Source: Armatimonadota bacterium
Lineage (GTDB): Bacteria > Armatimonadota > SYMT01
Length of the DNA stretch: 64,000 nucleotides
Reading direction: 5' to 3'
Assembly: GCA_041690135.1 (NCBI GenBank)
Contig: JAWLHY010000006.1
Coordinates: 166,327-230,326, forward strand
In this document: positions 14,234 to 59,229 of the stretch, one piece after another
Layout of the letters: each line of letters opens with the position of its first letter
Position numbering within the stretch: position 1 is the first letter of the stretch
The notes under the pieces: generated by a model
Told to the model about the DNA's origin: nothing
The model's database searches: none
What the model saw: the letters and a program-made list of their open reading frames with translations, nothing else
Made by a program: the position numbers and the translations under genes

Positions 14234-14275
14234 ATTGCCAATTGAGAATTGCAAATTGCAAATTGCTAATTGGGA
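14234..14275. repeat. Degenerate 7-mer tandem array, 6 x ATTGnnA
   Basis: attgcca attgaga attgcaa attgcaa attgcta attggga, an AT-rich patch at the permease-permease junction. Confidence 0.9.
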
Positions 14276-15081
14276 CCACCGTTGCGAGGGGCGGAGTGGT
14301 GGTCGGTGCGGTGGTGATGCTGCTGCCTTTCGGCTGGATGCTCTCCACGGCGCTACAAACACCCGCTGAGGTATTCTCGCAGCCGCCACGCTGGCTGCCC
14401 CGGGCGCCGCAGTGGGGGAACTTTGTTCAGGCGACCACCGTCGTGCCGTTCTGGCAGGGAGTGCTGAATACCTTGCTCATCACGCTCCCAGGGCTGATCG
14501 GTGGTCTGTTTGCCTCGGCCCTGGCCGCTTACGCATTCGCCCGGCTCCGGTTTCCCGGCCGGGAGATGCTCTTTGGGACGCTCCTGGTGACGTTGATGAT
14601 TCCCGCCGCCGTGACCATGGTGCCCCTGTTCGTGCTCTTTCGAGAACTGCGTTGGATCGACAGCTTCCGACCGCTTATCGTCCCAGCCCTCTTCGGCGGC
14701 GCCTATGCCATTTTCTTTCTCCGGCAGTTCTTTAGAACACTCCCCGCTGACCTGGACGAAGCCTCCCGTATCGACGGTTGCTCGTACTGGCAAACCTTCT
14801 GGAAGATCCTGCTCCCCCTCGCCCACGCGCCCGTGGCGACCCTGGCGGTATTCGGCTTCCTTGCCGGATGGAACGAGTTCCTGGCGCCGCTGATCTATCT
14901 CAGCTCTCCAGAACGGTTTCCGCTGCAACTGGTTCTGGCGGAGTTCCAGAGCCTCTACTACACGGACTGGTCGCTGATGATGGCGGGCGCGACCCTGGCC
15001 AGCCTACCCGTCATGGCACTTTATCTCGTCGCCCAACGCTACGTGGCGGAAGGGATTGCCCTCTCGGGAATCAAGGCTTAA
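14242..15081 (+). CDS. Carbohydrate ABC transporter permease
   Basis: AAYAFARLRFPG, FFLRQFF, DEASRIDGC, WNEFLAPLIYL. N-terminus overlaps the 7-mer array, so the start is uncertain. Confidence 0.92.
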   Translation: MRIANCKLLIGTTVARGGVVVGAVVMLLPFGWMLSTALQTPAEVFSQPPRWLPRAPQWGNFVQATTVVPFWQGVLNTLLITLPGLIGGLFASALAAYAFARLRFPGREMLFGTLLVTLMIPAAVTMVPLFVLFRELRWIDSFRPLIVPALFGGAYAIFFLRQFFRTLPADLDEASRIDGCSYWQTFWKILLPLAHAPVATLAVFGFLAGWNEFLAPLIYLSSPERFPLQLVLAEFQSLYYTDWSLMMAGATLASLPVMALYLVAQRYVAEGIALSGIKA

Positions 15082-15866
15082 CTGGATGCGCGAGACATGC
15101 CGGCACTGTCGGGCTGCAAGATCTTGATACCGATCACCGAACGCCGAGCTCGTGGAAGGTACTCCAGCAATGGCTCATCGATCACCTTCTTCCGAGTCTG
15201 GCTGGCGTGTCGCAGGATCAGTGTCCCCTTGTTCCGGAACAAAAATCCGACGTGGCCGGCTACGATATCGGGCCGGTCAAGGACGAAAAGCACCACGGAA
15301 CCATCCGGGATCTGCGCCTGCACCGCAGCTACTTTTGCCCGCGGAAGATAGGTCGTCTTCACCGCTCGCGCGACGGCGCCGGATCGCTTGGGATCGCCGC
15401 CCCGCGAAGACAACAACTTCGGAAGATCGATTTGCCGGTTGATCCACTTCACGTGGTTGCCACCGACTTGTGCCGTGACATCCCGCGCAGGCCAGGGGTA
15501 GATCAACCAATCCGGCACGCAATAATGGTGGCGGTTCTCCAACCGCACCTGACCACGCCGGTACCGGATTAACCGTACCGCGGCATCGAGCCCGCCCACC
15601 CACGGAGCAATCGCCTCCGCCATGACCTGTTCCACCAGAGTCTGGCAGTCGGCATATTTGCGGCTGAACAACGGGTCCCTATCCGGTCCGGTAGCTTCAC
15701 CAAGACAATCGAGACGGTACGGAACGCCGAGGTAACGGCCACTGATGGCACGCAAGCGCGAAGGAGAAACCGCATGCACCGGGACGGTGGCTGCTTCGAC
15801 ACCTTGCCCGATAGCGATCCAACCGAATAGGCCCAATATCGCCAACCGCCGGTACACCCGCCTCAT
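15078..15866 (-). CDS. DUF1460 / NlpC-P60-fold amidase-like secreted protein
   Basis: Signal peptide, YLGVPY, DCQTLVE (Cys), IRY..G, RHHY, GHVGF, LRHAS. Confidence 0.8.
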   Translation of the reverse strand: MRRVYRRLAILGLFGWIAIGQGVEAATVPVHAVSPSRLRAISGRYLGVPYRLDCLGEATGPDRDPLFSRKYADCQTLVEQVMAEAIAPWVGGLDAAVRLIRYRRGQVRLENRHHYCVPDWLIYPWPARDVTAQVGGNHVKWINRQIDLPKLLSSRGGDPKRSGAVARAVKTTYLPRAKVAAVQAQIPDGSVVLFVLDRPDIVAGHVGFLFRNKGTLILRHASQTRKKVIDEPLLEYLPRARRSVIGIKILQPDSAGMSRASS

Positions 15867-17590
15867 GGAAGGTCTTCCAGCAGAGGCTGGGGCTGGTACC
15901 GATCGCCGGTTCCTAACTGTTCGTCTACCAGACTCAGCAGTGCCGAAGACCGATCGACCGGCCTTTCCAACTCCCGAATAAGTGCCAGCGCCCGCCGTGG
16001 CTCCACGCTAAAGAGACCCCGCGCAGCCTCGGCCAATGCGCTCCCCCGCTCACGCCGGTCGGGAATATGGGGGGCTAGCTCCATCACAATCTCCGGAGCG
16101 ACACCAGCGGCCGCACGCGAAAAGTCACCCATGGATGGACAGTCGATCCGCCGCAACAGCAGGTCGCAAACCCGCCGAAGCGCCGCCTTACCCTGCACCG
16201 GATCACAGCGGTGGAGCGCGAGAGCGGCCTGTGTCATCCCCTCGGTATCGTCACTCGCTTCGGCAACCGAGAGCCAGCGCTGGAGCACCACAGCGCCCGC
16301 CCCGGCATCGAGTTGCTCCATCCAGCGGCTGGCCTCGGGGAGGCCCAGCACGCCCGGGATCCGGGGATCGTCATCCGAGAGGCGCGACAGCACCCGTTCG
16401 ATCAACGGCTTTGCCGCGCTGATATCCAGGTAGGGCGAGCGGTCGGTCCGGAACACCAGGTCCAGGATATGGGCGTATTCCCAAAGGGCTTCCAGCGCCT
16501 CCCCTTCCCGCATCGCTTGCGCAAACAGATCGGCTGCTTCCCGCGGATGCGAGGCCGCGAGTTCATTGGCGATCAGCACATAGGTAGCGATCCGCCGGGC
16601 GCCCTCCTCATCCTGGGAGGCGGCGGCGATCGCATCGTGAAAAATACGCCCCGCCCACTCCCGGTCCAACTCCGCTACCGCCGACGCCACCCCCGTCCAG
16701 TGGAGCGCCTGCATCTGGGTTCCGGAACTCTCTCCGGCTTCCAGGGCCTTCTGGAACAGGCGACGGGCTCGCTCGGGCTCCGTACCGATGGCGGCATGCG
16801 CCAGCCGCACGATGGCTTCCGGACCCTGCATGTGGGCGATAAAGAGAGCGTCCTCTTCGGCGCCATCGAACACCGCTCCGCGCTGCACCGCATCCGGCAG
16901 GTTGCCGGCAACCTGCATCCGCACTTCCAGGCGCATCACGGGGTCTTGTATCTCCGACGCCAGGGCGACGGCGTGTGCTGGATCCTGCACCCCCAGCGTG
17001 TTCGCCAGAAACACCAGCAGTGGATCGCGGGACTCGAGCTCACGGCAAAGGCGCTCCGCTTCAGCCAGGAAGGCACTCCCCCGGGCCTCCCCCATTACCA
17101 CCAGCGCTTCCCCCACCAGCGCCAATGCCAGCGCCGCGGTTCGCCCCTCGCCCTCGTCGCGGGTCACGAGGGCCTCGGTCTCGGGGACCAAGCGGGACGC
17201 AGCCAGGCGTCCGGCCTCCGCATCTTTCTCGTAGAGCGTGACCGCCAACTCCGACAGCTCGTTCAGAACCCGCAACTGGTCGTCTGGGGACTGCGCACGA
17301 GCAATCTCTAACGCACGGGAGAAGAATGGCTCCAGATCCGTCTCGCTTTGACGAATCAGGTCTCTGCAGACGGTAGCGAGAAGATCCAAACGAGCGCCGA
17401 CGTCTTCCGTGGCAGCATCGATGCGTTGGCCGGCACTCCGAGGGTCAACGGTCGAGAGCCGGTAAAGCCACGCCACACAATGACGCTCCCGCATCACGGG
17501 ATGGGTGATGGACGTGGCTTCCCGGAGGCCCTCCTCCGCGACTGCGAGAAGATCCGGAGCACCCGTTGCAGGGGTTTGGTCAGTGAACAT
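15863..17590 (-). CDS. Hypothetical all-alpha (HEAT/TPR-like) protein
   Basis: 575 aa A/L/E/R-rich helical ORF; ATGA overlap with the downstream gene. Confidence 0.7.
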   Translation of the reverse strand: MFTDQTPATGAPDLLAVAEEGLREATSITHPVMRERHCVAWLYRLSTVDPRSAGQRIDAATEDVGARLDLLATVCRDLIRQSETDLEPFFSRALEIARAQSPDDQLRVLNELSELAVTLYEKDAEAGRLAASRLVPETEALVTRDEGEGRTAALALALVGEALVVMGEARGSAFLAEAERLCRELESRDPLLVFLANTLGVQDPAHAVALASEIQDPVMRLEVRMQVAGNLPDAVQRGAVFDGAEEDALFIAHMQGPEAIVRLAHAAIGTEPERARRLFQKALEAGESSGTQMQALHWTGVASAVAELDREWAGRIFHDAIAAASQDEEGARRIATYVLIANELAASHPREAADLFAQAMREGEALEALWEYAHILDLVFRTDRSPYLDISAAKPLIERVLSRLSDDDPRIPGVLGLPEASRWMEQLDAGAGAVVLQRWLSVAEASDDTEGMTQAALALHRCDPVQGKAALRRVCDLLLRRIDCPSMGDFSRAAAGVAPEIVMELAPHIPDRRERGSALAEAARGLFSVEPRRALALIRELERPVDRSSALLSLVDEQLGTGDRYQPQPLLEDLP

Positions 17591-17592
17591 GA

Positions 17593-19144: not shown

Positions 19145-19171
19145 CCACGCGTCACCTCCTGGGGAAGTGTA

Positions 19172-19281
19172 TCGTTCGGGCACTCTGGCGTTCAGGCGTT
19201 CAGGCATTCAGGCCCCCCTATGAGGGATGGGCGTTCGGGCGCTTGGGCACTCGGACGGTGTTCGGGTGGTCAGGTGTTCAG
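19172..19281. repeat. Degenerate 8-mer array (about 11 units, CCTGAAYR-like on the - strand) with a central CCCTCATAGGG hairpin
   Basis: tcgttcgg gcactctg gcgttcag gcgttcag gcattcag [gcccccctatgagggatgg] gcgttcgg gcgcttgg gcactcgg acg gtgttcgg gtggtcag gtgttcag. Confidence 0.85.
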
Positions 19282-19456
19282 GATGTTTTGGCGAATTGTT
19301 GACGCCTCGGATGACGGCGCCGTAGGGAAGGTAACGGACACCCGGCAGAGCCTGGTGAGTTCCATTCCGCTGCTCGCGAGGTTGATCTCGTGGGGCCAAA
19401 TGGTGCTCTTGGAGCATCATGGGGCGGACGCATCCGTTTCCGTACACCCATGCGAG

Positions 19457-19485
19457 AAGGGGAACGGTCGTCGACCGTTCCCCTT
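19457..19485 (-). terminator. Perfect hairpin downstream of the prepilin-type gene
   Basis: AAGGGGAACGGTCG-T-CGACCGTTCCCCTT. Confidence 0.65.
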
Positions 19486-19542
19486 TCAAACCTTCCGGCA
19501 GCAGTGTCCAACTCCGGCGGAGCCGAACGTACAGCTACCCGA

Positions 19543-20199
19543 TTAATAAAGGTTCCAGAGTTCGAAGCGGTTGAGCGTGGCGGGGTCGATGGTGGTGCCG
19601 TCTTCGGCAGCCACTTCCTTCTCGAGGAAGCCCTTCTTCATCGACTTCACGTGGCCGTCCAGGAAACCGACGTTCGCCATCTCGTTGTGCAGATACCACG
19701 CACCACCGTAGGTACCGGCCACCGTTAAGGGATCGGCCCGGTAGGAGCCCTGATCCACGATGGCCACCGTGTCGGCGGGCTTTGCGACCCCAGCCAGGGC
19801 CGTCGCGTGGAGGAACCGCCAGTTGTAACCGTAGGTCACCTGATCGTCCGCCGGGTTGTTCGTATCCAGCGTGTCCTGCTGGTCGGTACTACTGGCGCAC
19901 TTCCAGACCTGGCTGTTCTTCACGTAGGCGTTCACCGCCGTCGGCCAGGTAGCGAGTACCGTCGTACCCCCCGAATCGAGTGAGGCGAAGATGGGATTCA
20001 CTTCATCGTAATCGTTGGTATACATCTGAATCGCCGACAGGATCTGCTTCACGTTGGAGCGGCATGAGGTCTGCCGGGCCGCTTCCCGAGCCCGCGCGAA
20101 CACGGGGAACAGGATGGAAGCCAGGATGGCGATGATGGCAATCACGACGAGGAGCTCGATGAGCGTGAAGCCTCGCCGGGCGAGCGGTCTGCTGGACAT
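19543..20199 (-). CDS. Prepilin-type N-terminal cleavage/methylation protein with DUF1559 and H-X9-DG C-terminus
   Basis: [42 protein letters not shown]...[15 protein letters not shown]. Confidence 0.92.
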
Positions 20200-28460: not shown

Positions 28461-28497
28461 ATGGACAATGGACAATTGACAATTGACAATTGACAAT
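28461..28497. repeat. Left arm: 5 x 7-mer AT(G/T)GACA
   Basis: atggaca atggaca attgaca attgaca attgaca at; ends 15 nt before the dnaB start. Confidence 0.93.
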
Positions 28498-28548
28498 GTG
28501 CGCCATTCGCGCTCGTGCGAATACCTGCGCTATCACAGGTGCGACGGA

Positions 28549-28926
28549 TCATTGTTCGAACCTTCGCCACTTCTCTGTATTGCGCTTTGCAGTCACCAGA
28601 GCACGGCCGATTATGTCGCATAGCTCACTACTTTCCTTCAATACAGCCACTGTGTCGGCAGGTGTCATCATCTCGCCTTTGCGAATCATCCGTAGCCAGA
28701 GACGCGTCTCGCGGAGTTCTTTCAACACGATACTCATCTTGTGGATGAAGTCGGCCCGAGACTCCGCGGCACACGCCTCTTCGTAGACAGCCGCCGGTGA
28801 CGTGCAGCAACGGACCAACTGTCCCGCGATATGTCGGCCGAGCCGGGTCTCCGGCAGACGTTCCGCTAATGCGCCAACTTTCACCGCAAAAGTAACCAGG
28901 CGGTCGGAAAGCTGCTCGGGGGTCAC
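28549..28926 (-). CDS. Four helix bundle protein (23S rRNA intervening-sequence protein / Avd-like family)
   Basis: LSDRLVTFA...LP...HIAGQLVRCCTSPAAVYEEACAAESRADFIHKMSIVLKELRETRLWLRMI; GTG start with GAGGA RBS. Confidence 0.92.
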   Translation of the reverse strand: MTPEQLSDRLVTFAVKVGALAERLPETRLGRHIAGQLVRCCTSPAAVYEEACAAESRADFIHKMSIVLKELRETRLWLRMIRKGEMMTPADTVAVLKESSELCDIIGRALVTAKRNTEKWRRFEQ

Positions 28927-28987: not shown

Positions 28988-29017
28988 CAAATGACAATTG
29001 TCAATTGTCATTTGTCG
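28988..29017. repeat. Right arm: inverted 7-mer array (ATTGTCA), also a 13-bp self-palindrome
   Basis: CAAATGACAATTG-T-CAATTGTCATTTG-tcg; 28997-29016 is the reverse complement of 28471-28490 at 19/20 positions. Confidence 0.9.
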
Positions 29018-30053
29018 TTAACTTCACAGGGCGATGCCCCAACTCTTGTGAACGGAGGAAGCCCAGGAGCACCTCCAGGACAAGTCGGCCTTGTTCAGGA
29101 GGACAGGAGAGTTCGGTGACTTCGCCTTTGAGGCAGCGAAGCAATTCATCGATCCCGGCCGCGGTGCCGGTGAGCCGCATCTGGGGTTCTACCAGCCGCT
29201 GGGAGCGCCCTTCCACCGTGAGGATGGCGCCGTCCAGGTCGGACACGTGGATCTGTCCCCGGTCGCCGTAGAGGTCGAGCGCAAACCCCTTGGGGGTATC
29301 TTTACTGGCGCAAAGGAAGGCCCGTGCGCCGTTCTCAAAGTGGAGGTAAGCCGTCGCGCCGGGGTCTCCCGCAGGGTCCCGACCGCCGTCTCCGCGATAG
29401 GTAAAGTAGTCCTCGAATCCCGGGTCCAACTCCGCCCACACCCACTCCGGCCGGCTCTCTACCAGCATCAACACGGTATCGACGAGATGGCTGCCGTTCC
29501 GGAAAAGCATGGCCCGCGGACCACCCATGTAGCCGACGATACGGGTCAGTTTCCCAATCTCGCCGGCTCGTACCCGTTCGCGGACGTGGTTGTAAAGCGG
29601 GTACCACCGCCGCGTGTGGTTTACCGCCAGGAGTACACCGGCCGCGCGCGCGGCGGCAATCATCCGGTCCGCATCTTCGAGTGTGGTCGCGATCGGCTTC
29701 TCGCAGAAGATGGCTCGAACTCCAGCCTCACAGGCATCGACCACGATGTCCGCGTGGCGGTGGTCCGAGGTGACGACGCTGAGGACCTCGATTCCGCAAT
29801 CCCCAAGCATCCGGCGATAGTCCGTATAGCCCTGCGCATCCGGAAAGCGGGCGGACCAGTTCCCACGAAACTCTTCGATCAATTCCGCGCGCAAATCGCA
29901 CACTGCAGCCAGTTCGACCTCCGGCTGGAGCGCATAGGCACCCGCATGGGAGGTAGGCATCACGTCTCGGAGTCCACCCAGAAGTGGAATGGGGCTCACT
30001 CCAGCCCCTATGCCCGTCAAACCGACGATCGCCGCCCGGTAGCGCTTCATCAT
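29001..30053 (-). CDS. Gfo/Idh/MocA family oxidoreductase
   Basis: AAIVGLTGIG, CEKPIA, VNHTRRW, GSHLVD; last codons and stop lie within the 7-mer array. Confidence 0.92.
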   Translation of the reverse strand: MMKRYRAAIVGLTGIGAGVSPIPLLGGLRDVMPTSHAGAYALQPEVELAAVCDLRAELIEEFRGNWSARFPDAQGYTDYRRMLGDCGIEVLSVVTSDHRHADIVVDACEAGVRAIFCEKPIATTLEDADRMIAAARAAGVLLAVNHTRRWYPLYNHVRERVRAGEIGKLTRIVGYMGGPRAMLFRNGSHLVDTVLMLVESRPEWVWAELDPGFEDYFTYRGDGGRDPAGDPGATAYLHFENGARAFLCASKDTPKGFALDLYGDRGQIHVSDLDGAILTVEGRSQRLVEPQMRLTGTAAGIDELLRCLKGEVTELSCPPEQGRLVLEVLLGFLRSQELGHRPVKLTTNDN

Positions 30054-30186
30054 GATCATCCTGCGATCGATGCACCTCGGCGGTGCAGCGCTCATCCCAG
30101 AGCGCCACGTCTAGCCGCGTTTGTGAGCCGGTCAAAGGAGTGGATAAGGGCCATCCTCTTTCAACCGGATTCGAGAAGCTTTAGGG

Positions 30187-40376: not shown

Positions 40377-40685
40377 CTACTTCTCGGTCTCCTCGTCCTG
40401 GGCTTGCTTGCCGCGCTCGATCAACTCTTTGACGCGGTTACCGCCCTTCTTCCCGATCTTCTCGTAGAATTCGGGGCCGTGCTTTTCGGCCGTCGTCTGA
40501 CCGCCCTTTTTACCGATCTCTCCGTAGAAGTCCGGGCCGTATTTCTTGCGGGTCGCTTCCCCGCCCTTGTGGCCGATTTCCGTGTAGAAATCCTTGCCGT
40601 ACTTCGCTTTGACCGTTTCGCCGCCTTTCTTGCCGGCTTCGGCAACGGTCATCTCCTTGCGATCCGAGGTGTCGTCCTTCGCCAT
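40377..40685 (-). CDS. KGG-repeat general stress protein (GsiB/Em-like)
   Basis: MTVAEAGKKGG followed by three FYxxIGxKGG repeats; AGGAG RBS. Confidence 0.9.
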   Translation of the reverse strand: MAKDDTSDRKEMTVAEAGKKGGETVKAKYGKDFYTEIGHKGGEATRKKYGPDFYGEIGKKGGQTTAEKHGPEFYEKIGKKGGNRVKELIERGKQAQDEETEK

Positions 40686-40852: not shown

Positions 40853-40914
40853 GATGAGGATGAGGATGAGGATCCGGGTGGATAAGGACAAGGATAAGGA
40901 TGGATGAAGATGGG
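40853..40914. repeat. Degenerate 6-mer array GAT(G/A)AG
   Basis: gatgag gatgag gatgag gatccg ggtg gataag gacaag gataag gatg gatgaa gatggg. Confidence 0.85.
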
Positions 40915-42803: not shown

Positions 42804-42885
42804 TTAGCAGGTTTGCAAGTTGGAAAGTTTGCAGGTTAGGGTGGATCGGATAACCTGCCAACCTGCTAACCTTCAAACCTGCCAA
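42804..42885. repeat. Inverted pair of 8-mer arrays (TTnGCAGG x4 / CCTGCnAA x4) around a 12-nt loop
   Basis: ttagcagg tttgcaag ttggaaag tttgcagg tta [ggtggatcgga-type loop] taa cctgccaa cctgctaa ccttcaaa cctgccaa; arms match at 28/35. Confidence 0.9.
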
Positions 42886-42919
42886 CGCAGCACCCCATTG
42901 TGATTGAACCATCAACATC

Positions 42920-45733: not shown

Positions 45734-45765
45734 GCGGGGTACGAGGTTTTCACCTCGTACCCCGC
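45734..45765 (+). terminator. 14-bp hairpin after the Mo subunit
   Basis: GCGGGGTACGAGGT-tttc-ACCTCGTACCCCGC; no clear U-tail. Confidence 0.55.
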
Positions 45766-45772
45766 TGTATCG

Positions 45773-45800
45773 AAGGATGAAGGCGGAAGGCGGAAGGATG
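45773..45800. repeat. 4 x 7-mer AAGG(AT/CG)G
   Basis: aaggatg aaggcgg aaggcgg aaggatg. Confidence 0.75.
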
Positions 45801-45938
45801 TAGCAGGCAACCTGTCGCCCTGGATCGGAAGCCTGTGATCTCGCAGTCGTCACGGCTAACCCCGTTCGCCGGTGCTGGTCTCAATTCGGGAGCGGCTGCA
45901 GTTGCCACTGCAGCCGCTCCCGAATTGTCCAACAAGAT

Positions 45939-46020
45939 CCTGAATGCCTGAACGTTTACCCCCACATGGGGGGGCCGATGCCCGACCACCCGAAAACCTG
46001 AACACCTGGAATTCCGAACC
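45939..46020. repeat. Degenerate 8-mer array (CCTGAAYR-like) with central CCCCC-ACAT-GGGGG hairpin, abutting the MoaD-like start
   Basis: cctgaatg cctgaacg [tttacccccacatgggggggccgatg] cccgacca cccgaaaa cctgaaca cctggaat tccgaacc t ATG. Confidence 0.85.
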
Positions 46021-48157: not shown

Positions 48158-50338
48158 ATGGCTGATTCCGACGCTACTTCTCCCACCCTCCCCAGCACGG
48201 ATATCGTCTCGATCCTGGCCCACCCGGAGCAGGAGGGGCGCCTGGTGGTGGACGCTGCCTTCGTCAGCGCGAACCGGGCTAATATCGACTGGCTGCTCGA
48301 TCGTCTCTCCAAGTCCACCGCGGGAGTCCGCGGCCTCATCGCCGGGACGCCCCACCTCACCCACCTGTCTCTAGAAGAGGCATCGAAGACGACGCAGCTC
48401 AGCCCCACCATCGTGGCGATGATCGCGCAGGCCTACGCCCAATATCTCACCGGCTCCGCCCGGACTTCCGGCCAGGAGAACCCTACTGCCGCCGCCTTCG
48501 TCGGCTTCGATGCGCGCTTTCTTTCAGACCGGTTCGGGGAGATCTTTACGCGAGTATTCGCGGGCAACCAGGTGCGCGTCGTTCGCGACCATCACGGCGA
48601 GCCCACACCTACCCCGGTTACCTCGTTCATGGCGGTCTATGCCCATCTCTCCGGCGGCATCCAGATCACCGCCAGCCACAACCCACCTAACCATAACGGT
48701 GTCAAGTCGAGCACCTGGTATGGCGGGGTCGATACGGACGACATCTCGGACCGGATCGCGGAAGAGCTGCGCAAGCTGATCGGTGAAGGCGGGGAGATCC
48801 CCTTCGCGGCCCTGCCCTCGGCACTGGTCGAAGAGGTGGACGCGAAAGGGATCTACGGTGAGGAGTACCTCCGCGCCACGTTCCCCAGCGAGGATCTCCA
48901 GCCGCTGCGGTCGGCCATCGAGGGCGGCACTGGGTTCCTGTTCGACGGCCTGCATGGCGTCGGCGGCTCCGCGATGCAGCGTTATCTCGATATCCTGCTT
49001 CCCGATACGGACTGGTCCCGTTCCATCCAACTGCTGAACGACCGGCCCAACTCCAGCATCGGGGGGATCGAGAAGCCGGACCCCTCCGATCCGAACACGC
49101 TGGTGCTTTCCGGCGCGATCGAGTACCTCGTCGAGCACCCCGAGACCCTCGTGTCCGTGACCGCGGATATGGATGCGGACCGGATCGGCACGGCCATCCT
49201 GGTGCCCGAGAGCGAAGTCGCCCGCGCACGGAAGTTCGGACTGTTCGTCAGCGGGTTCGAAGGCGGCGTGTACGCGGTCCGCTTCACGCCCAACCAGATT
49301 TTCACGCTCATCGCTTACGACCGCCTGCTGAGCGCCGCGCGCCTCACCCCCGGCGAGTTGCGGGAGGCCGTGAACCGGGGCGAGTTCGCGGGCGAGCGGT
49401 ATCACCTGCTCACCACCATCGCCAGCAGCGTCCTCGCAGAGCAACTCGCCCGCACCTACGGACTCAGCTTCCACCTCACCGCCGTCGGTTTCAAGAACCT
49501 CGGCAAACTGGCGTGGCAGATCGACCGCACGGATCGCGGCGATGTCATCATCGCGTTGATGGAAGAGAGCGGTGGCGCCCAGATCGGCCCCTTCAAGCCG
49601 TGGAACTCGGCTGGCGACACGATCCACCGCGACAAGGACACTTGCGCCCTGGCCCTGGCGTTGTTCAACCTGGCCGCCCGCATGAAGGCGGAAGGGCGGA
49701 GTGTGCTCGACTTCTACCTCGAGATGGCGGAGCAGTTCGGCTCTCTGGCCTACTTCGAGCGCCTGGATGCCTACCTGCCGAACCGGGAGATGGCCGAGAA
49801 GCCCGAGCACGCCGAAGCCGCCAACCGGGTCAAAGCAGAGATCCTGGACCGCCTGGTCGCCCTGGAGAAGCCGGAGAGCCACGCCACGCTACTCCGCCTG
49901 CTGGGGTATGACCCGGATACGGCGGAGCGCGAGCCGACCACCGAGTTGAACGCCATCTCCCTACTGGTGAAGTTGGAAGGGACCTGGCAGACGATTCACC
50001 CCCTCGCCCACCGGTACCGCTTGCCGGACGGCGAGACTGTGGAGTTCTTCCGGGCCGGACCGTTCGCCCACGACGGGATGCAGATCCGCGTTTACGACGC
50101 CTCCGGCAGCGTACGCCACTGGTGCCTGGTGCGGGCCAGCGGTACGGAGGCAGTGCTACGGGCCTATATGGAAGTGGTCGAGCCGCTGGACAACCCCAAC
50201 CCCATGCGCCTCGCCGACCAGTTCGAGCCCCTCCTGCGCCACCTGGGCCTGGACCGCTACGCGATCGACGCCTCCCACCCGGATTATGTCAGTGAGTTCC
50301 GCGCCACCGTCGCCGGTAAATACGGCCACGGTTCCTGA
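48158..50338 (+). CDS. Alpha-D-phosphohexomutase (PGM/PMM family), long form
   Basis: GFDARFLS, ITASHNPP (phospho-Ser), DMDADR (metal loop), VGFK, EESGG, RDKD, RASGTE. Confidence 0.88.
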   Translation: MADSDATSPTLPSTDIVSILAHPEQEGRLVVDAAFVSANRANIDWLLDRLSKSTAGVRGLIAGTPHLTHLSLEEASKTTQLSPTIVAMIAQAYAQYLTGSARTSGQENPTAAAFVGFDARFLSDRFGEIFTRVFAGNQVRVVRDHHGEPTPTPVTSFMAVYAHLSGGIQITASHNPPNHNGVKSSTWYGGVDTDDISDRIAEELRKLIGEGGEIPFAALPSALVEEVDAKGIYGEEYLRATFPSEDLQPLRSAIEGGTGFLFDGLHGVGGSAMQRYLDILLPDTDWSRSIQLLNDRPNSSIGGIEKPDPSDPNTLVLSGAIEYLVEHPETLVSVTADMDADRIGTAILVPESEVARARKFGLFVSGFEGGVYAVRFTPNQIFTLIAYDRLLSAARLTPGELREAVNRGEFAGERYHLLTTIASSVLAEQLARTYGLSFHLTAVGFKNLGKLAWQIDRTDRGDVIIALMEESGGAQIGPFKPWNSAGDTIHRDKDTCALALALFNLAARMKAEGRSVLDFYLEMAEQFGSLAYFERLDAYLPNREMAEKPEHAEAANRVKAEILDRLVALEKPESHATLLRLLGYDPDTAEREPTTELNAISLLVKLEGTWQTIHPLAHRYRLPDGETVEFFRAGPFAHDGMQIRVYDASGSVRHWCLVRASGTEAVLRAYMEVVEPLDNPNPMRLADQFEPLLRHLGLDRYAIDASHPDYVSEFRATVAGKYGHGS

Positions 50339-50348
50339 AGGGGGGTTG

Positions 50349-50620
50349 CTCGCGCCAAGCCGCCAAGCCGCCAAGAAAGAAGGGCGGACACCAAGCCGAG
50401 CAAAAGCGCACAGGAAGTATCTGGTACTACTTAGACAGTCATTGTCGGGTCCGCCCGGATGTTGAAATCCATTGGCCACCCCGACCCAAACAACGACACC
50501 CAGGCTGACAACCAATCGGTTATCTGCCTGGGTGCTCTGATATTGTGCAGATCCAGCACGCTTGAAACGAAGCCGCCAATCCGATTCACCCTTCTTCGCG
50601 GCTTGGCGGCTTCGCGCGAG
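50349..50620. repeat. 29-bp inverted repeats built from CGCCAAGC 8-mers, enclosing a 214-bp spacer
   Basis: 50349-50377 vs reverse complement of 50592-50620: 27/29 identical; a partial third copy at 50631-50647. Confidence 0.9.
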
Positions 50621-50676
50621 GACTTCCCATCTTCGGCTTGGCGCGAGACCTTCCCCTCTCGGTAAACGGGCAGGCT

Positions 50677-53917: not shown

Positions 53918-53942
53918 GGTGCGGTGCAGCAGGAGAAGAGGG

Positions 53943-54305: not shown

Positions 54306-54424
54306 TTCGTTTTCTCCTTTGCGGCGTTGAGGCCGCTCAATCTACGGGTCGACCGGACATCATGGCCGGGACCCACTTCTTTCGGACCGGGAGGAAGCCA
54401 CCCCCTCACCGGCCCTCGTTGGAT

Positions 54425-54628
54425 TTAGAAGCTGTTAGGAAGCAGGCGCTTGACCTTGTTGATCTCGCCGCCCTGCACCTGACCGTCCTGGTTCATCCGC
54501 CGGGTGCGACCACCATTCTTCTTGTTCATCATCAGGTGGTTCAGGCGGCTGTGTTCGTACATCAGCTTGCCGGTGCCGGTGATCTTGAATCGCTTGGCAG
54601 CGGTCTTGTTGGTTTTTACCTTCGGCAT
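54425..54628 (-). CDS. rpmI: 50S ribosomal protein L35
   Basis: [21 protein letters not shown]...KRLLP. Confidence 0.96.
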
Positions 54629-54715
54629 TTTTCTGGTCCTGAGCCTCACCCGGACGGAAACGGCCGGGTGAGGAATGCTGCGAGCCGCACAAGCTCGCAT
54701 CATAGCAAAGGGGCC

Positions 54716-56461
54716 TTACTCAGTCAACTCCTGCTGCGCCTGCGCCAGGAACTGGCCGAGCGGCAGCGGTCCGAGGTTCCCCTGGTCGCGGGAGCGGACG
54801 GCCACGGCGCCGGCTTCGGCCTCCTTATCGCCGACCACCAGCATATACGGAATCTTCTGGAGCTGCGCGTCGCGGATCTTGGACTGCATCCGGTCCCCGC
54901 GCTTATCGACTTCCACCCGGAGACCGGCGTCCGCCAACTGCTGCTTCACCTGCTCGGCATACTCCAGGTGACGGTCCGCGATCGGGATGATGACGGCCTG
55001 GACCGGAGCCAGCCAGAGCGGAAATGCCCCGGCGAAGTGCTCGATCAGCACGCCCACGAACCGCTCCAGGGAACCGAACGGTGCGCGGTGGATCATCACC
55101 GGCCGGTGCGGCTGGCCGTCCTCACCCGTGTATTCCAGGTTGAAGCGCTCGGGAGAAGGCAACACGTAATCGACCTGAACGGTGCCGAGCTGCCACTCGC
55201 GACCGATGGCGTCGCGGACCAGGAAGTCGAGCTTGGGCCCATAGATCGCGGCTTCGCCTTCCGCTACCTCGTGCGGCATTCCCAGCTGCTGCACCGCTTC
55301 AAGCAGCGCGCTCTGCGACTGCTCCCAGTCTTCCGGCGAGCCCACGTACTTGCTGGAATTGTTCGGATCCCGCAGGCCGACCCTCGCGCGATACTGGAGC
55401 TTGAGGCGCTGGAACACCAGCATAATCAGGTCCACCACGCCATGGAACTCGGAGACGAGCTGGTCCGGCCGGCAGAAGATATGGCTGTCATCCTGCGTGA
55501 AGCCGCGCACCCGGGTAAGACCTCCGAGCTCGCCGCTCTGCTCCCAGCGGTAGACGGTGCCGAACTCCGCGTAGCGGATCGGGAGATCCCGGTAGCTGCG
55601 CCGCTCGCTGGCATAGATCTGCACATGGAAGGGGCAGTTGACCGGTTTCATCACGAGCTCTTCGTGGTCGCCGTGCATCGACGGGAAGAGGTTCTCGCGG
55701 TAAGCCTGCCAGTGCCCGGAGATCTCGAACAGCTCCCTCTTCGACATGTGGGGCGTTACCACCGGCAGGTAGCCGCGCTTCCGCTGCTCATTGCGCATGA
55801 ACTCGACCAGCGTCTCACGCAGGATGGCGCCCTTCGGCAACCAGAGCGGCAAGCCCGCACCCACCGTGGGGCTGACCATAAAGATCCCCAACTCGCGGCC
55901 CAGGCGGCGGTGGTCTCGCTTGCGCGCCTCTTCCAGCCGCTCCAGGTAGGCGTCCAGTTCCTCCTGCGTGGCGAACGCGGTCCCGTAGATGCGCTGCAGC
56001 ATCTTATTCTTTTCGCTGCCCCGCCAGTAGGCGCCCGCCACGTTCAGCAGCTTGATCGCCCCGATGCTCCCGATGCGCTCCACATGCCCGCCGCGGCAGA
56101 GATCCGTAAAGTCGTCGTGGGCGTACAGAGTGATCGACTCGCCCTTCTCCGCGATCTCCTCGATCAGCTCGAGCTTGTAGGGGTTGTCCCGGAATAGCTC
56201 CCGCGCTTCGTCCACGGATACCTCGCGGCCTGCGATCGGCGAATCGGCGGCGATGCACTTCCGCATCTCCGCCTCGAGCGCTTCCAGGTCCTCGGGAGTG
56301 AACGGGGTCTCGCGGTCGAAGTCGTAGTAGAAGCCCTCCTCGGTCGCGGGGCCGATGGTCATCTTGGCCTCGGGGAAGAGGTGCTGGACGGCCTGCGCGA
56401 GCACGTGCGCGGTGCTGTGCCGCAGGCGATAGAAATCGTCTACTTCAACCGGTTTCCGCAT
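54716..56461 (-). CDS. thrS: Threonine--tRNA ligase (lacks the N-terminal TGS domain)
   Basis: RHSTAHVLA, DLCRGGH, RDHRRLG, KPVNCP, RVRGFTQDD, HRAPFGSLERF; GGAGG RBS. Confidence 0.97.
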   Translation of the reverse strand: MRKPVEVDDFYRLRHSTAHVLAQAVQHLFPEAKMTIGPATEEGFYYDFDRETPFTPEDLEALEAEMRKCIAADSPIAGREVSVDEARELFRDNPYKLELIEEIAEKGESITLYAHDDFTDLCRGGHVERIGSIGAIKLLNVAGAYWRGSEKNKMLQRIYGTAFATQEELDAYLERLEEARKRDHRRLGRELGIFMVSPTVGAGLPLWLPKGAILRETLVEFMRNEQRKRGYLPVVTPHMSKRELFEISGHWQAYRENLFPSMHGDHEELVMKPVNCPFHVQIYASERRSYRDLPIRYAEFGTVYRWEQSGELGGLTRVRGFTQDDSHIFCRPDQLVSEFHGVVDLIMLVFQRLKLQYRARVGLRDPNNSSKYVGSPEDWEQSQSALLEAVQQLGMPHEVAEGEAAIYGPKLDFLVRDAIGREWQLGTVQVDYVLPSPERFNLEYTGEDGQPHRPVMIHRAPFGSLERFVGVLIEHFAGAFPLWLAPVQAVIIPIADRHLEYAEQVKQQLADAGLRVEVDKRGDRMQSKIRDAQLQKIPYMLVVGDKEAEAGAVAVRSRDQGNLGPLPLGQFLAQAQQELTE

Positions 56462-56517
56462 GATGTTTCCTCCCGGCGGTCCTTACGAGGGACGGCCCGT
56501 GATGGTGGGGTAAGTGA

Positions 56518-56596
56518 GTATGGAAGTATGGGAGCATGGAGGATCAAAGATGGGAGACGACTCCGGTGGATCTTCCATACCCCCACACTTCCACAC
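56518..56596. repeat. Inverted pair of 8-mer arrays (GTATGGRA x3 / TTCCAYAC x3) in the thrS leader
   Basis: gtatggaa gtatggga gcatggag gatc [23 nt] gatc ttccatac ccccacac ttccacac. Confidence 0.88.
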
Positions 56597-56683
56597 GAGA
56601 AAGCAGCCAGCTACGTGCCTGGCAACGGGAACCGGGGCATTCTACCAGACCAGGCAAGGCATGGGAACCGAACCGGTGTTGAA

Positions 56684-56713
56684 GATATGGTCAAGGATGA
56701 GGATAAGGAGGGG
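56684..56713. repeat. Degenerate 6-mer array, same unit as 40853-40914
   Basis: gatatg gtcaag gatgag gataag gagggg. Confidence 0.6.
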
Positions 56714-56745
56714 CCAATCCGGGATACTGGGGGAAAGGTGGGGCG

Positions 56746-57951
56746 TCAATGACCGCAGTAATGGAGGGCGGTGAAGGCGTACATGGCGGCGCAGTGGTGA
56801 AGGCGCTCCACCAGGACGCGCTCGTCATCGGAATGCGCGGTCTTGTAGGCGGGCCCGTAATAAACGGTAGGCAGGCCTGCCAGGTTTGCATAAAGATTGG
56901 CATCGCCAACCAGGGCCATACCGATCCGTTCCGGGGCACTTCCGGTAAGAGTGCGATTGGCGGAGGTAAGAGCTCGCACCACCGGGTGATCGGCCGGCGT
57001 CTCGAACGGCTCGCGGGTGCCTTCGAGCTCCACTTCCAACTCGAGGCCGGTCTCTTCCGACAGTTCCCGACAGAGCGACTGGAATTCCGCGAGGACCTCG
57101 GCGCACGTCTGTCCAGGTGTCCAGCGGCGCTGCCCCGTCACAGTGAGCGGAGTCGGTAGCCGGTTCATGTAATCGCCTCCGTGGACCGTCCCTACGTTGA
57201 TGCGCGCGCGGCCGCAAAGGGGATGTGCCGGCTCCCGTTCGAAACGGTCTTCCCACTCCTGGAAGCGTGACAGCAATCGGCCCAAGCAGGCTGCGGGGTT
57301 CTCCCGATAGGGGACGTGGAGGGTATGGATCGGACCGCGAGGGCTGCGAATCGTAACGGTAAAGACTGCCGATCCCAGGCTGGCGGACCAGACGGCGGAC
57401 GGCCCTTCCACAATCACCGCTGCGTCGGCCCGAAGCTCTCCCGCGTTCAGCAACTCGATCAGGCGTAGCGGCCCTTCCTTCTTGCCGACGGGGGTTTCGT
57501 GTCCAACTACTCCGGTGAGCCAGAGGTCGCCGCGGAGTTCGACGCCTGCCTTCCGCAACGCGGACGCGCCATGGACCATCGCGACCAATCCGCCCTTCAT
57601 ATCCTCGGCCCCTCTGCCCACGACCCAATCACCTTCCCGCGCCGGCGGCGTAGAATTCCCGATGGGAATGGTGTCGGTGTGGCCATTGAGGAGCAGGGCA
57701 AGGGGACGGCACTGGGCGCTGGCCTTCAGGCTTTGGGCCTCTCCCGTTGGGAAGCGGGCGTAGACGTTGGGCCGTCCGGGGATAAACTCATCGAGAGTGA
57801 CCTCGAGACCTTCGCGACGCATTAAATCCGCGAGGAAGTAGCTTCCCATCCCTTCAGAGCCGGTTTCGCTCTTGACCCGCAAGAACTCGAGGGTATCCCG
57901 GGCAATGGCCTCTACATCGAGAAGGGAGAGAATCCTGCTTTCGAGTTCCAT
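56746..57951 (-). CDS. M20 family metallopeptidase/deacylase (ArgE/DapE-like)
   Basis: GRPNV, NGHTDT, GRGAEDMKGG, YGP...AHSDDE; the usual EE appears as GHET. Confidence 0.88.
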   Translation of the reverse strand: MELESRILSLLDVEAIARDTLEFLRVKSETGSEGMGSYFLADLMRREGLEVTLDEFIPGRPNVYARFPTGEAQSLKASAQCRPLALLLNGHTDTIPIGNSTPPAREGDWVVGRGAEDMKGGLVAMVHGASALRKAGVELRGDLWLTGVVGHETPVGKKEGPLRLIELLNAGELRADAAVIVEGPSAVWSASLGSAVFTVTIRSPRGPIHTLHVPYRENPAACLGRLLSRFQEWEDRFEREPAHPLCGRARINVGTVHGGDYMNRLPTPLTVTGQRRWTPGQTCAEVLAEFQSLCRELSEETGLELEVELEGTREPFETPADHPVVRALTSANRTLTGSAPERIGMALVGDANLYANLAGLPTVYYGPAYKTAHSDDERVLVERLHHCAAMYAFTALHYCGH

Positions 57952-58024
57952 CCGTGCCACCGCACCTTGTCTTCGCTGCATATCCCTGGTTGGACAGCTA
58001 TCACAGAAAACTCAGAAGCACATC

Positions 58025-58342
58025 GTGTCGCAACCTACGCCCCCCATTCCCTTCCGCAACGTACGCATCCTCGGAACGGACGAACCTTCTCCGGACGGCA
58101 CGCCGGTCTGGGTTTATGAAGGATCGCTGGAACGGTTCACCGGAGACGGGAGCCGGTTCCATTTCGAACAGCGCATCGCCTGGCCGGAGGACCCGGACTG
58201 GGAGCAAGTCCAGGAGTTGGGCCTCTGGATGGTGGCACGCCTCAGCGTGAACGGACACGTGCTCGTGGGGCTGCGGGCCCGCCCCGAAGCGGATCCACCC
58301 ACCACAGCCCGCCTGATCACCCCGACCACCGCCCCGGAGTAG
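58025..58342 (+). CDS. Hypothetical protein
   Basis: 105 aa ORF filling the gap, convergent with the next gene; no family recognised. Confidence 0.55.
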   Translation: MSQPTPPIPFRNVRILGTDEPSPDGTPVWVYEGSLERFTGDGSRFHFEQRIAWPEDPDWEQVQELGLWMVARLSVNGHVLVGLRARPEADPPTTARLITPTTAPE

Positions 58343-58349
58343 AGGGCCA

Positions 58350-59150
58350 TTAACCGCTCGGACGGCGGTAGAGCCGTGCGAAGTTATGCCTGGGTTCCCA
58401 ACCGAGGAGGCGTCGCGCTTTCGCCGGTGAGAACTTGCCGTGCGGAAGTTCTGCCAGGATGAAAAAGACCTCGTAAGGGTTGGGAGGGGTGGGCGCCCGC
58501 AGTCCGTTCAGGAACGCTTCGCCGCAATCTTCCCAACTCGTTGAGAACGGACCAATGCCCGAGCCGTCCGGCCGGTCTCCCCCATCGCCGGGTAGGAAGT
58601 GACAGTAGAGAAACGTGATCACTTCCAGGCCATGCGCCTCGGCGAAGACACGGGTCACCTCTCCACCCAGGTACTTGCTCACGGCATAGAGATCGCCACC
58701 AGGATGGAGCGGCACTTCGTCCGGAACGGCGAAGTCCCACCAGTAATCGGCGTTATGGTCGAGGCGCATGTGGTAAGGCCCGGTGTGGATGATCCGCTTG
58801 ATGCCCAACTCCACTGCGGCCTTCGCCACGTTGTAGGCCCCGATCAGGTTCACGTGGAAAGCCGGCGCGAGATGGGGGCGGACCACCGTGCAGTTGATGA
58901 GCGCATCCATGCCCCGGGCGGCCTCCAGGACCTGCTCATAATCCGCGACATCCACCACCCGGCAGTCATGGGGCGCAGGAAGCGGTTCGGGCAAGGGCGC
59001 ACCGGGCGACTGGGGGGTCGTGATCTGCTCCAGCGGTCGCACGTCGGTGAGCCGGAGGGTATAGTGCGGCGCCAGGGCGCGAGTGGCGGCTACCCCCACG
59101 GGGCCACCGGCTCCGAAGATTGCAACGTTACCTGAATGGATGGATGGCAT
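58350..59150 (-). CDS. NAD-dependent epimerase/dehydratase family (uronate dehydrogenase-like)
   Basis: IFGAGGPVG, LRLTD, VNLIGAYNV, YAVSK (YxxxK), ARRLLGWEP. Confidence 0.88.
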   Translation of the reverse strand: MPSIHSGNVAIFGAGGPVGVAATRALAPHYTLRLTDVRPLEQITTPQSPGAPLPEPLPAPHDCRVVDVADYEQVLEAARGMDALINCTVVRPHLAPAFHVNLIGAYNVAKAAVELGIKRIIHTGPYHMRLDHNADYWWDFAVPDEVPLHPGGDLYAVSKYLGGEVTRVFAEAHGLEVITFLYCHFLPGDGGDRPDGSGIGPFSTSWEDCGEAFLNGLRAPTPPNPYEVFFILAELPHGKFSPAKARRLLGWEPRHNFARLYRRPSG

Positions 59151-59152
59151 GG

Positions 59153-59229
59153 TTGGTCAGGTGGTCAGGTATGCAGGTGTTCAGGTACTCGACCGTCGGC
59201 AGTCGAGTGTTGGGCATTCAGGCGTTGAG
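59153..59229. repeat. Degenerate 8-mer array (CCTGAAYR-like on the - strand) with central ACTCGAC/GTCGAGT hairpin, abutting the start codon
   Basis: ttggtcag gtggtcag gtatgcag gtgttcag gt[actcgac cgtcggca gtcgagt]gttgg gcattcag gcgttgag. Confidence 0.85.

Follow-up and report, generated by a model that had tools for sequence, protein, structure and literature searches.

Short tandem arrays of degenerate 6–9-nt units stand at gene junctions throughout a 64,000-nt stretch of an Armatimonadota bacterium genome (the window hereafter, G000:C6:166327–230326; G000, the source genome, is a 9.10 Mb assembly of 25 contigs at ~63% GC). We put at roughly 0.6 the probability that small selfish cassettes of a widespread class account for these arrays, as cassette arms or as derivatives of them; in such a cassette two arrays in inverted orientation enclose a small gene, usually of the PF05635 four-helix-bundle or the PF13366 (GxxExxY) family, or a non-coding core. 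An earlier note on this DNA had described the window arrays as a window-wide family made of filled, empty and solo states of one candidate cassette system. The arrays are real, and a single system with filled, gene-less, hairpin and solo states is borne out, the gene-less pairs sharing arms with filled cassettes; what did not survive is the confinement to the window, since the phenomenon is genome-wide.

Arrays and the genes that they enclose

Arrays were detected with Tandem Repeats Finder (TRF), genome-wide counts being taken at periods 6–9 and at least 2.8 copies, and chance was modelled by three third-order Markov simulations of the same intergenic segments. The 1.60 Mb of intergenic DNA holds 249, 376, 356 and 109 arrays of period 6, 7, 8 and 9, compared with 2–4, 2–7, 5–8 and 1–3 in the simulations, that is, ~1,000 arrays versus ~15–20, and chance is excluded as their source genome-wide. 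The genome-wide scan that the earlier note had suggested thus finds arrays far in excess of composition-matched expectation and enriched at junctions: 1,044 of 1,724 non-redundant arrays of period 6–9 (81% of those of period 8) are intergenic in a genome of which 17.6% is intergenic DNA. Counted over the whole genome with the same copy minimum, array rows are by far most numerous at periods 6, 7 and 8 (489, 600 and 445), with 72 at period 10. When units are merged by rotation and strand, 282 unit types cover the 1,044 intergenic arrays, the largest families being AACCTTC (65 arrays), AAGGAT (61), AATCCT (52) and AACACCCG (50). Because each of the large families carries its own companion motifs and small GC hairpins, they are not bare microsatellites; of the 61 matches to GCCCCCCTCGGGGGC, for instance, 34 have a GAAGGTT-family array no more than 200 nt away and one is near the other family.

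Inverted partners within 1 kb (score at least 28) were found for 101 of 1,033 arrays (~10%), compared with 39 in a control that used the flanks of another array, and direct partners for 168 (~16%) compared with 26. In 100 inverted pairs the purine-rich arm is the 5′ one in 67 and the 3′ one in 17, on either strand. These pairs enclose a very restricted set of genes. The source genome has ten matches to PF05635, eight of them above the cut-off, and seven to PF13366, six of them full length; an automatic test places an inverted array pair around seven of the eight PF05635 genes and four of the six GxxExxY genes, and reading of the flanks extends the latter to six of six, the two loci that were missed having arms of 2–3 units that TRF skips and that are plain in the sequence. 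Other called genes are enclosed in 3 of 1,093 cases below 450 nt, and in 0 of 712, 5 of 1,560, 0 of 2,268 and 0 of 1,306 cases in the remaining groups; the three short genes include a DUF559 gene and one that forms the second half of a PF05635 gene broken by a frameshift. The suspected link between the arrays and these two families (7/8 and 6/6 enclosed, versus 3/1,093 other short genes) is thereby confirmed. The units that flank these cargo genes are mutually reverse-complementary on the two sides, and they differ from locus to locus. Eleven of 14 cargo genes are co-directional with both neighbours, which fits promoter-less cassettes that are read through from host genes. A Pfam search of 92 open reading frames (ORFs) inside 20 further pairs added DUF559, with two copies in the genome, as the sole other small-cargo family; three ordinary genes in those pairs are flanked by arrays (GT87, AP_endonuc_2 and a weak Amidohydro_3 match).

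The same build recurs in related genera and far outside the phylum. At 12 of 15 PF05635 loci in G003, G005 and G006, which are sister genera of the same family, TRF finds complementary-unit arrays on both sides, with a different unit each time. PF05635 is present in 38 of 81 sampled genomes of the phylum; at 22 of 24 loci with full flanks, from 24 genomes, inverted arms score at least 28, a level reached at 3 of 24 in other-locus controls and likewise at 3 of 24 when direct orientation is scored, and these arms are almost all period-7 arrays of 3.6 to >25 copies. One GxxExxY copy of the source genome has 222 confirmed relatives in the species-genome collection, of which the best 80 are 60–78% identical and come from Planctomycetota, Chloroflexota, Acidobacteriota, Bacteroidota, Bipolaricaulota, Desulfarculales, Thiotrichaceae and two archaeal bins. 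The left flank scores at least 32 against the reverse complement of the right flank at 54 of 71 GxxExxY loci with full flanks, and the arms belong to one family everywhere, with about three 8–9-nt units built on CRCRGAG. Finished records of cultured species with CRCAGAG-type arms are those of Bacteroides finegoldii, where the cassette stands between radA and the gene for an FAD-dependent protein with spacers of 59 and 44 nt, of a Bernardetia isolate with the same arrangement, and of Gemmatirosa kalamazoonensis (L199), where the GxxExxY gene lies between two tight hairpins of such units. Judged from these sequences, cassettes between ordinary genes occur in many bacterial phyla.

Two variants of the layout deserve mention. 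In the source genome, a GxxExxY gene (L041, C5:237900–239400) is found not inside one pair but between two complete, mutually homologous array–spacer–array modules; together with the Gemmatirosa locus, it means that an arrangement with the gene outside the hairpins also exists. Downstream of the GxxExxY gene of an Anaerolineaceae bin (L091), short TCTCAGCG arrays are repeated with offsets of 65 or 130 nt, a higher-order tandem structure of array-bearing modules.

Arms are inherited with their gene, the two arms of a cassette co-vary, and resident units are shared with genome-wide clouds made up of solo arrays, direct composites, hairpins and gene-less pairs. The dominant unit variant is identical in both arms at 27 of the 33 GxxExxY loci where both arms are unambiguous. 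Closer proteins have more similar arms over 47 PF05635 loci (arm similarity 0.16 where identity is <35% and 0.27 where it is at least 55%; Spearman rho 0.21, a value that none of 2,000 permutations reaches). The PF05635 protein of the window is 61% identical to the G006 protein encoded directly upstream of dnaB and 59% identical to a paralogue on contig 13, and related AATTG-type units are common to the three cassettes. By exact match, the eight PF05635 arm units of the source genome occur in 9, 20, 8, 66, 15, 1, 48 and 61 intergenic arrays, ranking 22, 10, 25, 1, 15, 110, 4 and 2 of 284 unit types, compared with a median of 0 for the arm units of 37 cassettes from other genomes (Mann–Whitney p 7e-6), whose sum of 65 is mostly due to related cassettes in sister genera. 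The same picture holds in G005, where a 100-kb sample remote from its cassettes has 39 arrays: five bear one of the seven units of G005 itself, and none bears a unit from the 38 foreign ones (p 2e-5). Array density follows cargo-gene number loosely, with 4 arrays per 100 kb in G001, which lacks PF05635 genes, and 12.5–39 per 100 kb in G000, G005 and G006, which have 8–9. The earlier note's alternative, that the arrays are binding sites for a ring-shaped four-helix-bundle protein, stands in part: each PF05635 paralogue has its own unit and its own cloud, which may count as indirect support for binding. The cassette that heads the largest family (GTTGAAG, 66 arrays; C1:613085–614043) has its PF05635 gene split over two reading frames, so that the 'master' of the biggest cloud is probably a pseudogene.

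The window and its orthologous junctions

In the window, genes from the codon-model caller were checked with Pfam, and TRF recovers arrays at nearly all of the positions that had been reported; with the sequence itself taken into account every one of them exists, the array first placed at 19172 starting at 19187 by TRF. Three elements fall below the TRF threshold and are nevertheless plain in the sequence, namely the left arm at 42804–42838, the right arm at ~56575–56597 and the array at 56684–56705, and the two arms pair with their partner arms in predicted folds. The placement at gene junctions and the four inverted pairs described in the earlier note are likewise upheld: by crude gene calls and Pfam, every window array is intergenic or overlaps a start or stop by a few bases, and the pairs are 28461/28988 around a PF05635 gene, 50349/50592 around a spacer, and the tight hairpins at 42804 and 56518. 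Nearly all window arrays can be assigned to a large array family. Arrays and spacers are listed without strand.

14234–14272: solo array (ATTGCAA) ×5.6 found by TRF between two ABC-permease genes.
19187–19287: direct composite of array, small GC hairpin and array, CGGGTGTT/TTCAGGYG family; TRF arrays 19187–19213 and 19257–19287, GGCGTTCA/GGTGTTCA.
28461–28498: arm of the filled cassette by dnaB, (ATGGACA/ATTGACA) ×5.4, found by TRF and overlapping the dnaB start region.
28549–28926, minus strand: cargo gene, co-directional with dnaB, for a PF05635/TIGR02436 four-helix-bundle protein (S23p/Avd-like) of 125 aa.
28988–29016: second arm of the filled cassette, (CAATTGT) ×3.1, reverse complement of the first-arm unit; TRF start 28995.
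40853–40912: direct arrays GATGAG ×3.5 and GGATAA ×3.7 (GGATRA family), found by TRF.
42804–42886: tight array hairpin with GCAGGTT-type arms and a 12–14-nt loop, from the fold (C6:209130/209178).
45773–45797: short solo array GAAGGCG ×2.7, 72 nt past the stop of the gene for a large dehydrogenase subunit; TRF 45779–45797.
45939–46008: TTCAGGYG-family composite in reverse orientation, CCTGAA-type units around a small GC hairpin; TRF 45987–46008.
50349–50375: 5′ arm of the gene-less cassette, (CGCCAAGC) ×2.9, 10 nt past the stop of a phosphoglucomutase-like gene; TRF 50353–50375.
50376–50591: non-coding spacer of the gene-less cassette (214–218 nt) with an internal hairpin.
50592–50616: 3′ arm of the gene-less cassette, (CTTCGCGG) ×2.9, 60 nt from the pheT stop; TRF 50594–50616.
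56517–56597: tight array hairpin with AGTATGGA-type arms in the thrS upstream region; TRF 56517–56540, ×3.0.
56684–56705: solo array (GGATGA/GGATAA), placed like the left arm of an inverted pair that is complete in G005.
59153–59235: TTCAGGYG-family direct composite of TGGTCAGG ×4.1, a small hairpin and more units; TRF 59154–59186.

The filled cassette lies between dnaB and a GFO_IDH_MocA oxidoreductase gene (29001–30059, minus strand), whose stop the second arm overlaps. Its protein matches PF05635 with an E value of 9.7e-12 and 45.5 bits (cut-off 33.8) and TIGR02436 with 68.9 bits, and its two arms pair with each other in both the minimum-free-energy (MFE) and the centroid fold (C6:194787/195318 in the genome-wide pair set). 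The gene-less cassette near pheT shares its arms with a filled GxxExxY cassette at C13:240396–240969, the 50349 arm being nearly identical to an arm there; the ORF that runs across its spacer belongs to no Pfam family, and the spacer holds no remnant of a PF05635 or GxxExxY gene and no Rfam match. The hairpin at 42804–42886 separates the genes for the FAD-binding and 2Fe-2S subunits of a xanthine-dehydrogenase-like operon; its unit is a variant of the GAAGGTT family, and TRF reports 42852–42886, AACCTGCC ×4.4. Several solo or direct arrays have the units of filled PF05635 cassettes elsewhere in the genome: the ATTGCAA unit at 14234, which 15 intergenic arrays share, is that of C13:90951–91465, the unit of the 19187–19287 composite is that of C3:996548–997186, and the GGATRA unit seen at 40853 also adjoins the PF05635 gene at C2:253271, its AAGGAT family being the one with 61 intergenic arrays. 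The composite at 45939–46008 ends ~40 nt before a ThiS-like gene.

Orthologous junctions were compared among the source genome and its relatives, G001 and G006 belonging to one genus.

OYE-like gene to dnaB: in G001 the stop overlaps the dnaB start; in G005 a 270-nt spacer holds a small inverted pair around a hairpin; in G006 there is a full PF05635 cassette.
GFO-like gene to dnaB: tight in G003 and G007; filled cassette in G000.
Xanthine-dehydrogenase FAD and FeS genes: 176-nt spacer with an array hairpin in G000; 27–50 nt and no array in G001, G003 and G006; ~167 nt and no array in G004.
Phosphoglucomutase-like gene and pheT: gene-less cassette with CGCCAAG arms in G000; gene-less cassette with GACACAGAGG arms in G005; ~45 nt in G003; ~185 nt and no arrays in G004.
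thrS upstream region: complete pair (GAGGGAT) ×6.3 and (TCATCCC) ×3.9 in G005; in G000, the matching position has only a solo array of that unit.

By this comparison orthologous junctions both acquire and lose cassettes, and a solo array can be the remnant of a pair. The filled, gene-less, solo and absent states that the earlier note had expected are all found at such junctions. At the pheT junction, the GACACAGAGG arms of G005 are almost identical to those of a filled GxxExxY cassette of the source genome; upstream of thrS, the G005 pair is placed, relative to a conserved upstream motif, as the solo array at 56684 is in the source genome, and the tight hairpin at 56517–56597 is absent from the corresponding place in G005, G003 and G006. 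The surroundings of that hairpin (56462–56650; L194, L195 and L196) include a leader hairpin, CCTCCCGGCGGTCCTTACGAGGGACG, conserved in G000 and G005, and the motif GGGAAC...GGCA.TCTA.CAGA upstream of thrS, conserved in G000, G005 and G006. The array hairpin of the source genome sits between the two, in a region that may be a thrS leader or promoter.

Other features of the window are of separate interest. A 48-nt near-perfect palindrome at 45880–45927 (CTCAATTCGGGAGCGGCTGCAG...CTGCAGCCGCTCCCGAATTG) between the dehydrogenase operon and the ThiS-like gene, and a separate GC hairpin at ~45742–45769, look terminator-like and are not built from arrays. A 60-nt-period repeat (×2.8) at 40440–40604 lies within a small KGG/LEA_5-type stress protein gene (40377–40685, minus strand) and is a coding repeat unrelated to the arrays. 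Pfam identifies a DUF1559/N-methyl protein gene at 19543–20199. Long shadow ORFs face real genes at 3637–5622 and elsewhere (one such opposite-strand pair measures 624 aa and 658 aa), as is usual at such GC content and a warning for any ORF-based reading. Over the whole window, Rfam at gathering thresholds and a tRNA scan each returned 0 matches. Among public sequencing runs, no RNA run is listed with window sequence, and two soil DNA runs contain a 0.05–0.06 share of its words.

Pairing, mechanism and alternatives

The arms are predicted to pair. In a 581-nt transcript through the filled cassette of the window, the arm stem appears in both the MFE and the centroid structure; the gene-less cassette (50335–50635) folds at −138.6 kcal/mol (z −7.6) with an arm stem of ~40 bp, and the thrS hairpin (56505–56605) at −50.2 kcal/mol on the minus strand (z −7.75) and −39.7 on the plus strand. 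Folding out of the cassette as an RNA or single-stranded DNA stem, which the earlier note had envisaged, has the predicted arm pairing in its favour, and its RNA form is where the idea weakens. Mismatches between arms read in the cargo sense are G·U and A·C in equal measure (94 versus 94 at 60 GxxExxY loci, 58 versus 56 at 45 PF05635 loci), which argues against a stem that functions only as RNA. In 52 co-directional contexts of the source genome the antisense arm duplex is the more stable in 29, the sense duplex in 15 and neither in 8 (p 0.013), so that, taken with the lack of a G·U excess, selection on a sense-RNA stem is not visible. Arm complementarity seems to be kept at the DNA level, either as terminal inverted repeats or through copy-correction between the arms.

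In the cassette model that we favour, a complete element would be a promoter-less small gene or a non-coding core between two inverted arrays of 3–6, sometimes >20, copies of a 6–9-nt unit, with the purine-rich arm 5′. The cargo would be a PF05635 four-helix-bundle protein (S23p/Avd-like), a PF13366 GxxExxY protein of PD-(D/E)XK fold or, rarely, a DUF559 protein, and the element would be wedged between host genes and mostly co-directional with them. The arms may act as terminal repeats whose cognate unit is recognised in trans by the cassette's own protein, which would spread or maintain the arrays in a partnership resembling that of RAYTs with REPINs or of transposons with miniature inverted-repeat elements (MITEs). 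In read-through transcripts the arms would form a duplex of 25–45 bp cleavable by RNase III, for which the source genome has a gene, and such a cut would free the cassette RNA and make insertion into operons or ribosomal RNA (rRNA) harmless. We infer this RNase III step, and with it that transcribed cassettes would work like intervening sequences (IVSs), because the parallel with the IVS of Coxiella is close, the arms are predicted to pair and the RNase III gene is present. One-unit-per-paralogue clouds together with complementarity at the DNA level make a partnership of the RAYT–REPIN kind the best-fitting picture. A further step, that PF05635 and GxxExxY proteins are the trans-acting factors of an unrecognised class of mobile elements, each paralogue recognising arrays of its own unit, is one that we advance tentatively and regard as rather doubtful. 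If it were true, proteins other than transposases would run a REPIN–RAYT-like partnership, and the class would account for the S23p-bearing IVSs of 23S rRNA, for how GxxExxY genes have spread horizontally among phyla of bacteria and archaea, and for the heptamer families of large genomes (5–11-nt repeats, TAACTGA and perhaps the cyanobacterial STRR).

Several results weigh against the cassette reading, among them the balance of G·U and A·C mismatches and the more stable antisense duplexes already described. About 80% of arrays have no detectable partner, the solo state being the commonest. Four large families have no resident cargo gene in the source genome (AATCCT with 52 arrays, AATGCGT with 30, AATACGC with 26 and ACGCATC with 26); the AATACGC unit forms the arms of a G005 cassette with a PF05635 gene (L019), and some clouds may therefore outlive their gene. 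A six-frame profile search of 65 pair interiors matched only the 11 known cargo genes, and spacers of gene-less pairs are not homologous to one another by BLAST. With one mismatch allowed, 544 of 1,033 arrays fall into cassette-arm families, far more than the mean of 104 for random units, but a null sampled from the unit types that exist gives 418 ± 77, which the observed number does not significantly surpass. G007 is a misfit, with 13 arrays per 100 kb and no PF05635 gene at the thresholds used. No target-site duplication could be defined, the filled and empty junctions compared being those of different genera or species and too diverged; no near-identical recent copies of filled cassettes and no excision junctions were found, and hence there is no direct evidence of movement. 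Gene calls in the source genome come from a simple, crude codon-model caller (6,949 genes, 82.4% coding), and the relatives are non-independent samples.

Two accounts of the gene-less spacers were considered and rejected. They are not decayed cargo genes, given the absence of any remnant beyond the 11 known genes in the 65 pair interiors, nor copies of one repeated element, since all-versus-all BLAST gave scattered short matches that are mostly further arrays.

The arrays could in principle be plain slippage microsatellites, with units expanding wherever selection allows, stems around small genes expanding alike and solo arrays being unrelated to them. Most arrays are indeed solo or direct, their copy numbers vary, and it is chiefly the DNA between genes that tolerates them. 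The family test that allows one mismatch gives no significant excess over existing unit types, and in many bacteria heptamers are the prevailing class of such repeats (Mrazek 2007, as given in the available part of PMC4679880). We nonetheless think slippage improbable as the whole explanation: GxxExxY arms use the same unit in phyla with very different genomes, the top-ranked unit types match the arm units of the genome's own cassettes and not foreign ones, a result replicated in G005, and both the family-specific companion motifs and the 5′ bias of the purine-rich arm run counter to it, as does the low array density of G001, a genome of the same genus as G006 and of similar GC. The IVS of Coxiella also has tandem heptamers, according to the portion of PMC4990558 at hand. 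Head-to-tail iteration, the mark of a microsatellite, is present here, whereas companion motifs, cognate cargo and inverted pairing counter the idea of repeats with no associated sequence.

Equally improbable, in our view, is that the arrays are host regulatory sites, binding a Csr-, Csp- or S1-type regulator on GGA-rich units and thereby tuning translation or termination. GGA or AGG occurs in many units, arrays lie near starts and stops, and a role of this kind is proposed in the available text of PMC4679880 for the TAACTGA repeats of Beggiatoaceae; against this, orientation relative to transcription is weak in the large families (AACCTTC 21/42, AAGGAT 25/39, AATCCT 17/33), density per kb is lower in divergent, promoter-bearing spacers (0.42) than in convergent (0.80) or tandem ones (0.73), arrays at orthologous junctions come and go between genera with differing units, and there are 284 unit types. 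Somewhat better placed, and still unlikely, are MITE-like elements moved by an unrelated host or transposon enzyme, with the small genes as passengers that play no role in their spread. Such elements would explain the terminal inverted arms, the great excess of gene-less over gene-bearing derivatives, the companion motifs and the lack of a G·U bias, which is expected under recognition at the DNA level, and the genome does hold nine Y1_Tnp genes. None of the nine, however, is flanked by arrays; the same three small-protein families recur as the sole cargo, arm similarity tracks the similarity of the cargo proteins, and a separate unit and cloud for each paralogue are hard to reconcile with a single external enzyme. 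Pfam shows no transposase or integrase among the window genes, IntI not having been searched genome-wide, and at other cassette loci no adjacent transposase was seen by gene calls and flank reading only.

Should the cassette reading hold, PF05635/TIGR02436 and PF13366, very common families of small 'hypothetical' proteins, now have a concrete sequence partner and a testable function; we know of no role for either family outside diversity-generating retroelements (DGRs) and rRNA intervening sequences. The cassettes offer a possible origin for part of the intergenic short tandem repeats of large genomes, which break assemblies and have been blamed on slippage, and array pairs could be used to find cassettes and to flag junctions that are hot spots of gain and loss.

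Relation to known systems

Cyanobacterial STRRs are heptamer repeats, and the foldback transposons of eukaryotes have terminal inverted repeats made of short tandem repeats, with few gene-bearing and many gene-less copies. Foldbacks and MITEs depend on a transposase, foldbacks being eukaryotic, whereas no transposase was seen beside the cassettes examined here and no target-site duplication was seen. Integron gene cassettes, which have one attC site downstream of the ORF and depend on an IntI integrase with attI, do not fit as a model: here arms flank the ORF left and right, single cassettes are dispersed among housekeeping genes, and no integrase was seen among the window genes scanned. The accessory protein Avd of DGRs is a PF05635-like pentameric four-helix bundle that binds nucleic acid (PMC10053308, in its available part). 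A DGR link was also rejected: the two RVT_1 genes of the genome (C2:307761 and C4:300853) stand >50 kb away from any PF05635 gene, and neither template and variable repeats nor a reverse transcriptase were seen next to any cassette.

Long simple repeats of 5–11 nt (Mrazek 2007) and heptamer direct repeats such as TAACTGA, the latter in Beggiatoaceae, Cyanobacteria and Bacteroidetes, have been described as mostly intergenic and patchy, with horizontal spread suggested (PMC4679880). The present arrays resemble them in their heptamer-class tandem units and mostly intergenic position. The accessible part of that account treats such repeats as direct repeats explained by slippage or translational control and makes no link to S23 (0 occurrences), to PF05635 or GxxExxY, or to inverted pairing.

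REPINs and their RAYTs (Bertels and Rainey 2011) provide a genome-wide analogy. There, as the available text of PMC3116915 has it, a single-copy gene is flanked by its own repeat type, inverted hairpin doublets occur genome-wide beside decayed singlets, several flavours coexist in a genome, and long co-evolution is inferred. The repeat type flanking PF05635 genes is likewise abundant genome-wide, but only ~10% of arrays have an inverted partner. RAYTs are Y1 transposases and REPs are GC-rich palindromes, whereas the proteins here belong to a four-helix-bundle pentamer family and to the PD-(D/E)XK fold and the repeats are tandem arrays. A direct link to RAYT or IS200-type transposases was rejected, the Y1_Tnp genes having other palindromes in place of the array families: among those at C11:209659, C1:627841, C2:54557 and six more positions, the first and third are flanked by GC-rich palindromes of their own (CCCCGGATTCAAATCCGGGG), which may be a separate REP-like system.

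A close parallel is found in the S23p-bearing IVSs of 23S rRNA, reported for Leptospira and others besides Coxiella, and the earlier note, in knowing of no described mechanism, put the case too strongly. In Coxiella burnetii, as far as the available part of PMC4990558 goes, the IVS is a 428-nt element described as selfish. Its loop holds the S23p ORF, RNase III cuts within its 28-bp terminal stem, and ahead of the ORF, in the 5′ part, come 3–4 tandem purine-rich heptamers (GACAGAT), the exact number depending on the strain. The window cassette has the same build, with a PF05635 ORF (28549–28926, minus strand) inside the element and terminal inverted repeats predicted to form a stem around it, and arrays enclose seven of eight PF05635 genes of the genome. 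The source assembly, with a stated completeness of 97%, matches the bacterial large-subunit (LSU) rRNA model only in an 83-nt fragment (C4:52623–52705), and its rRNA operon is accordingly unassembled. In the literature covered, which did not extend to subscription journals and family notes and was in part seen as excerpts, no link of PF05635 or GxxExxY to flanking tandem arrays outside rRNA was found; the cassettes are akin to IVS-type selfish elements and apparently had not been linked to such repeats before. They differ from S23p IVSs in adjoining protein-coding genes and not 23S rRNA (the 23S gene being missing from this assembly), in having two further cargo families, GxxExxY and DUF559, and in their hundreds of gene-less, hairpin and solo derivatives, with a cognate cloud for each cassette. 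The finding points to a far wider class of cassettes, with rRNA intervening sequences as one of its landing sites.

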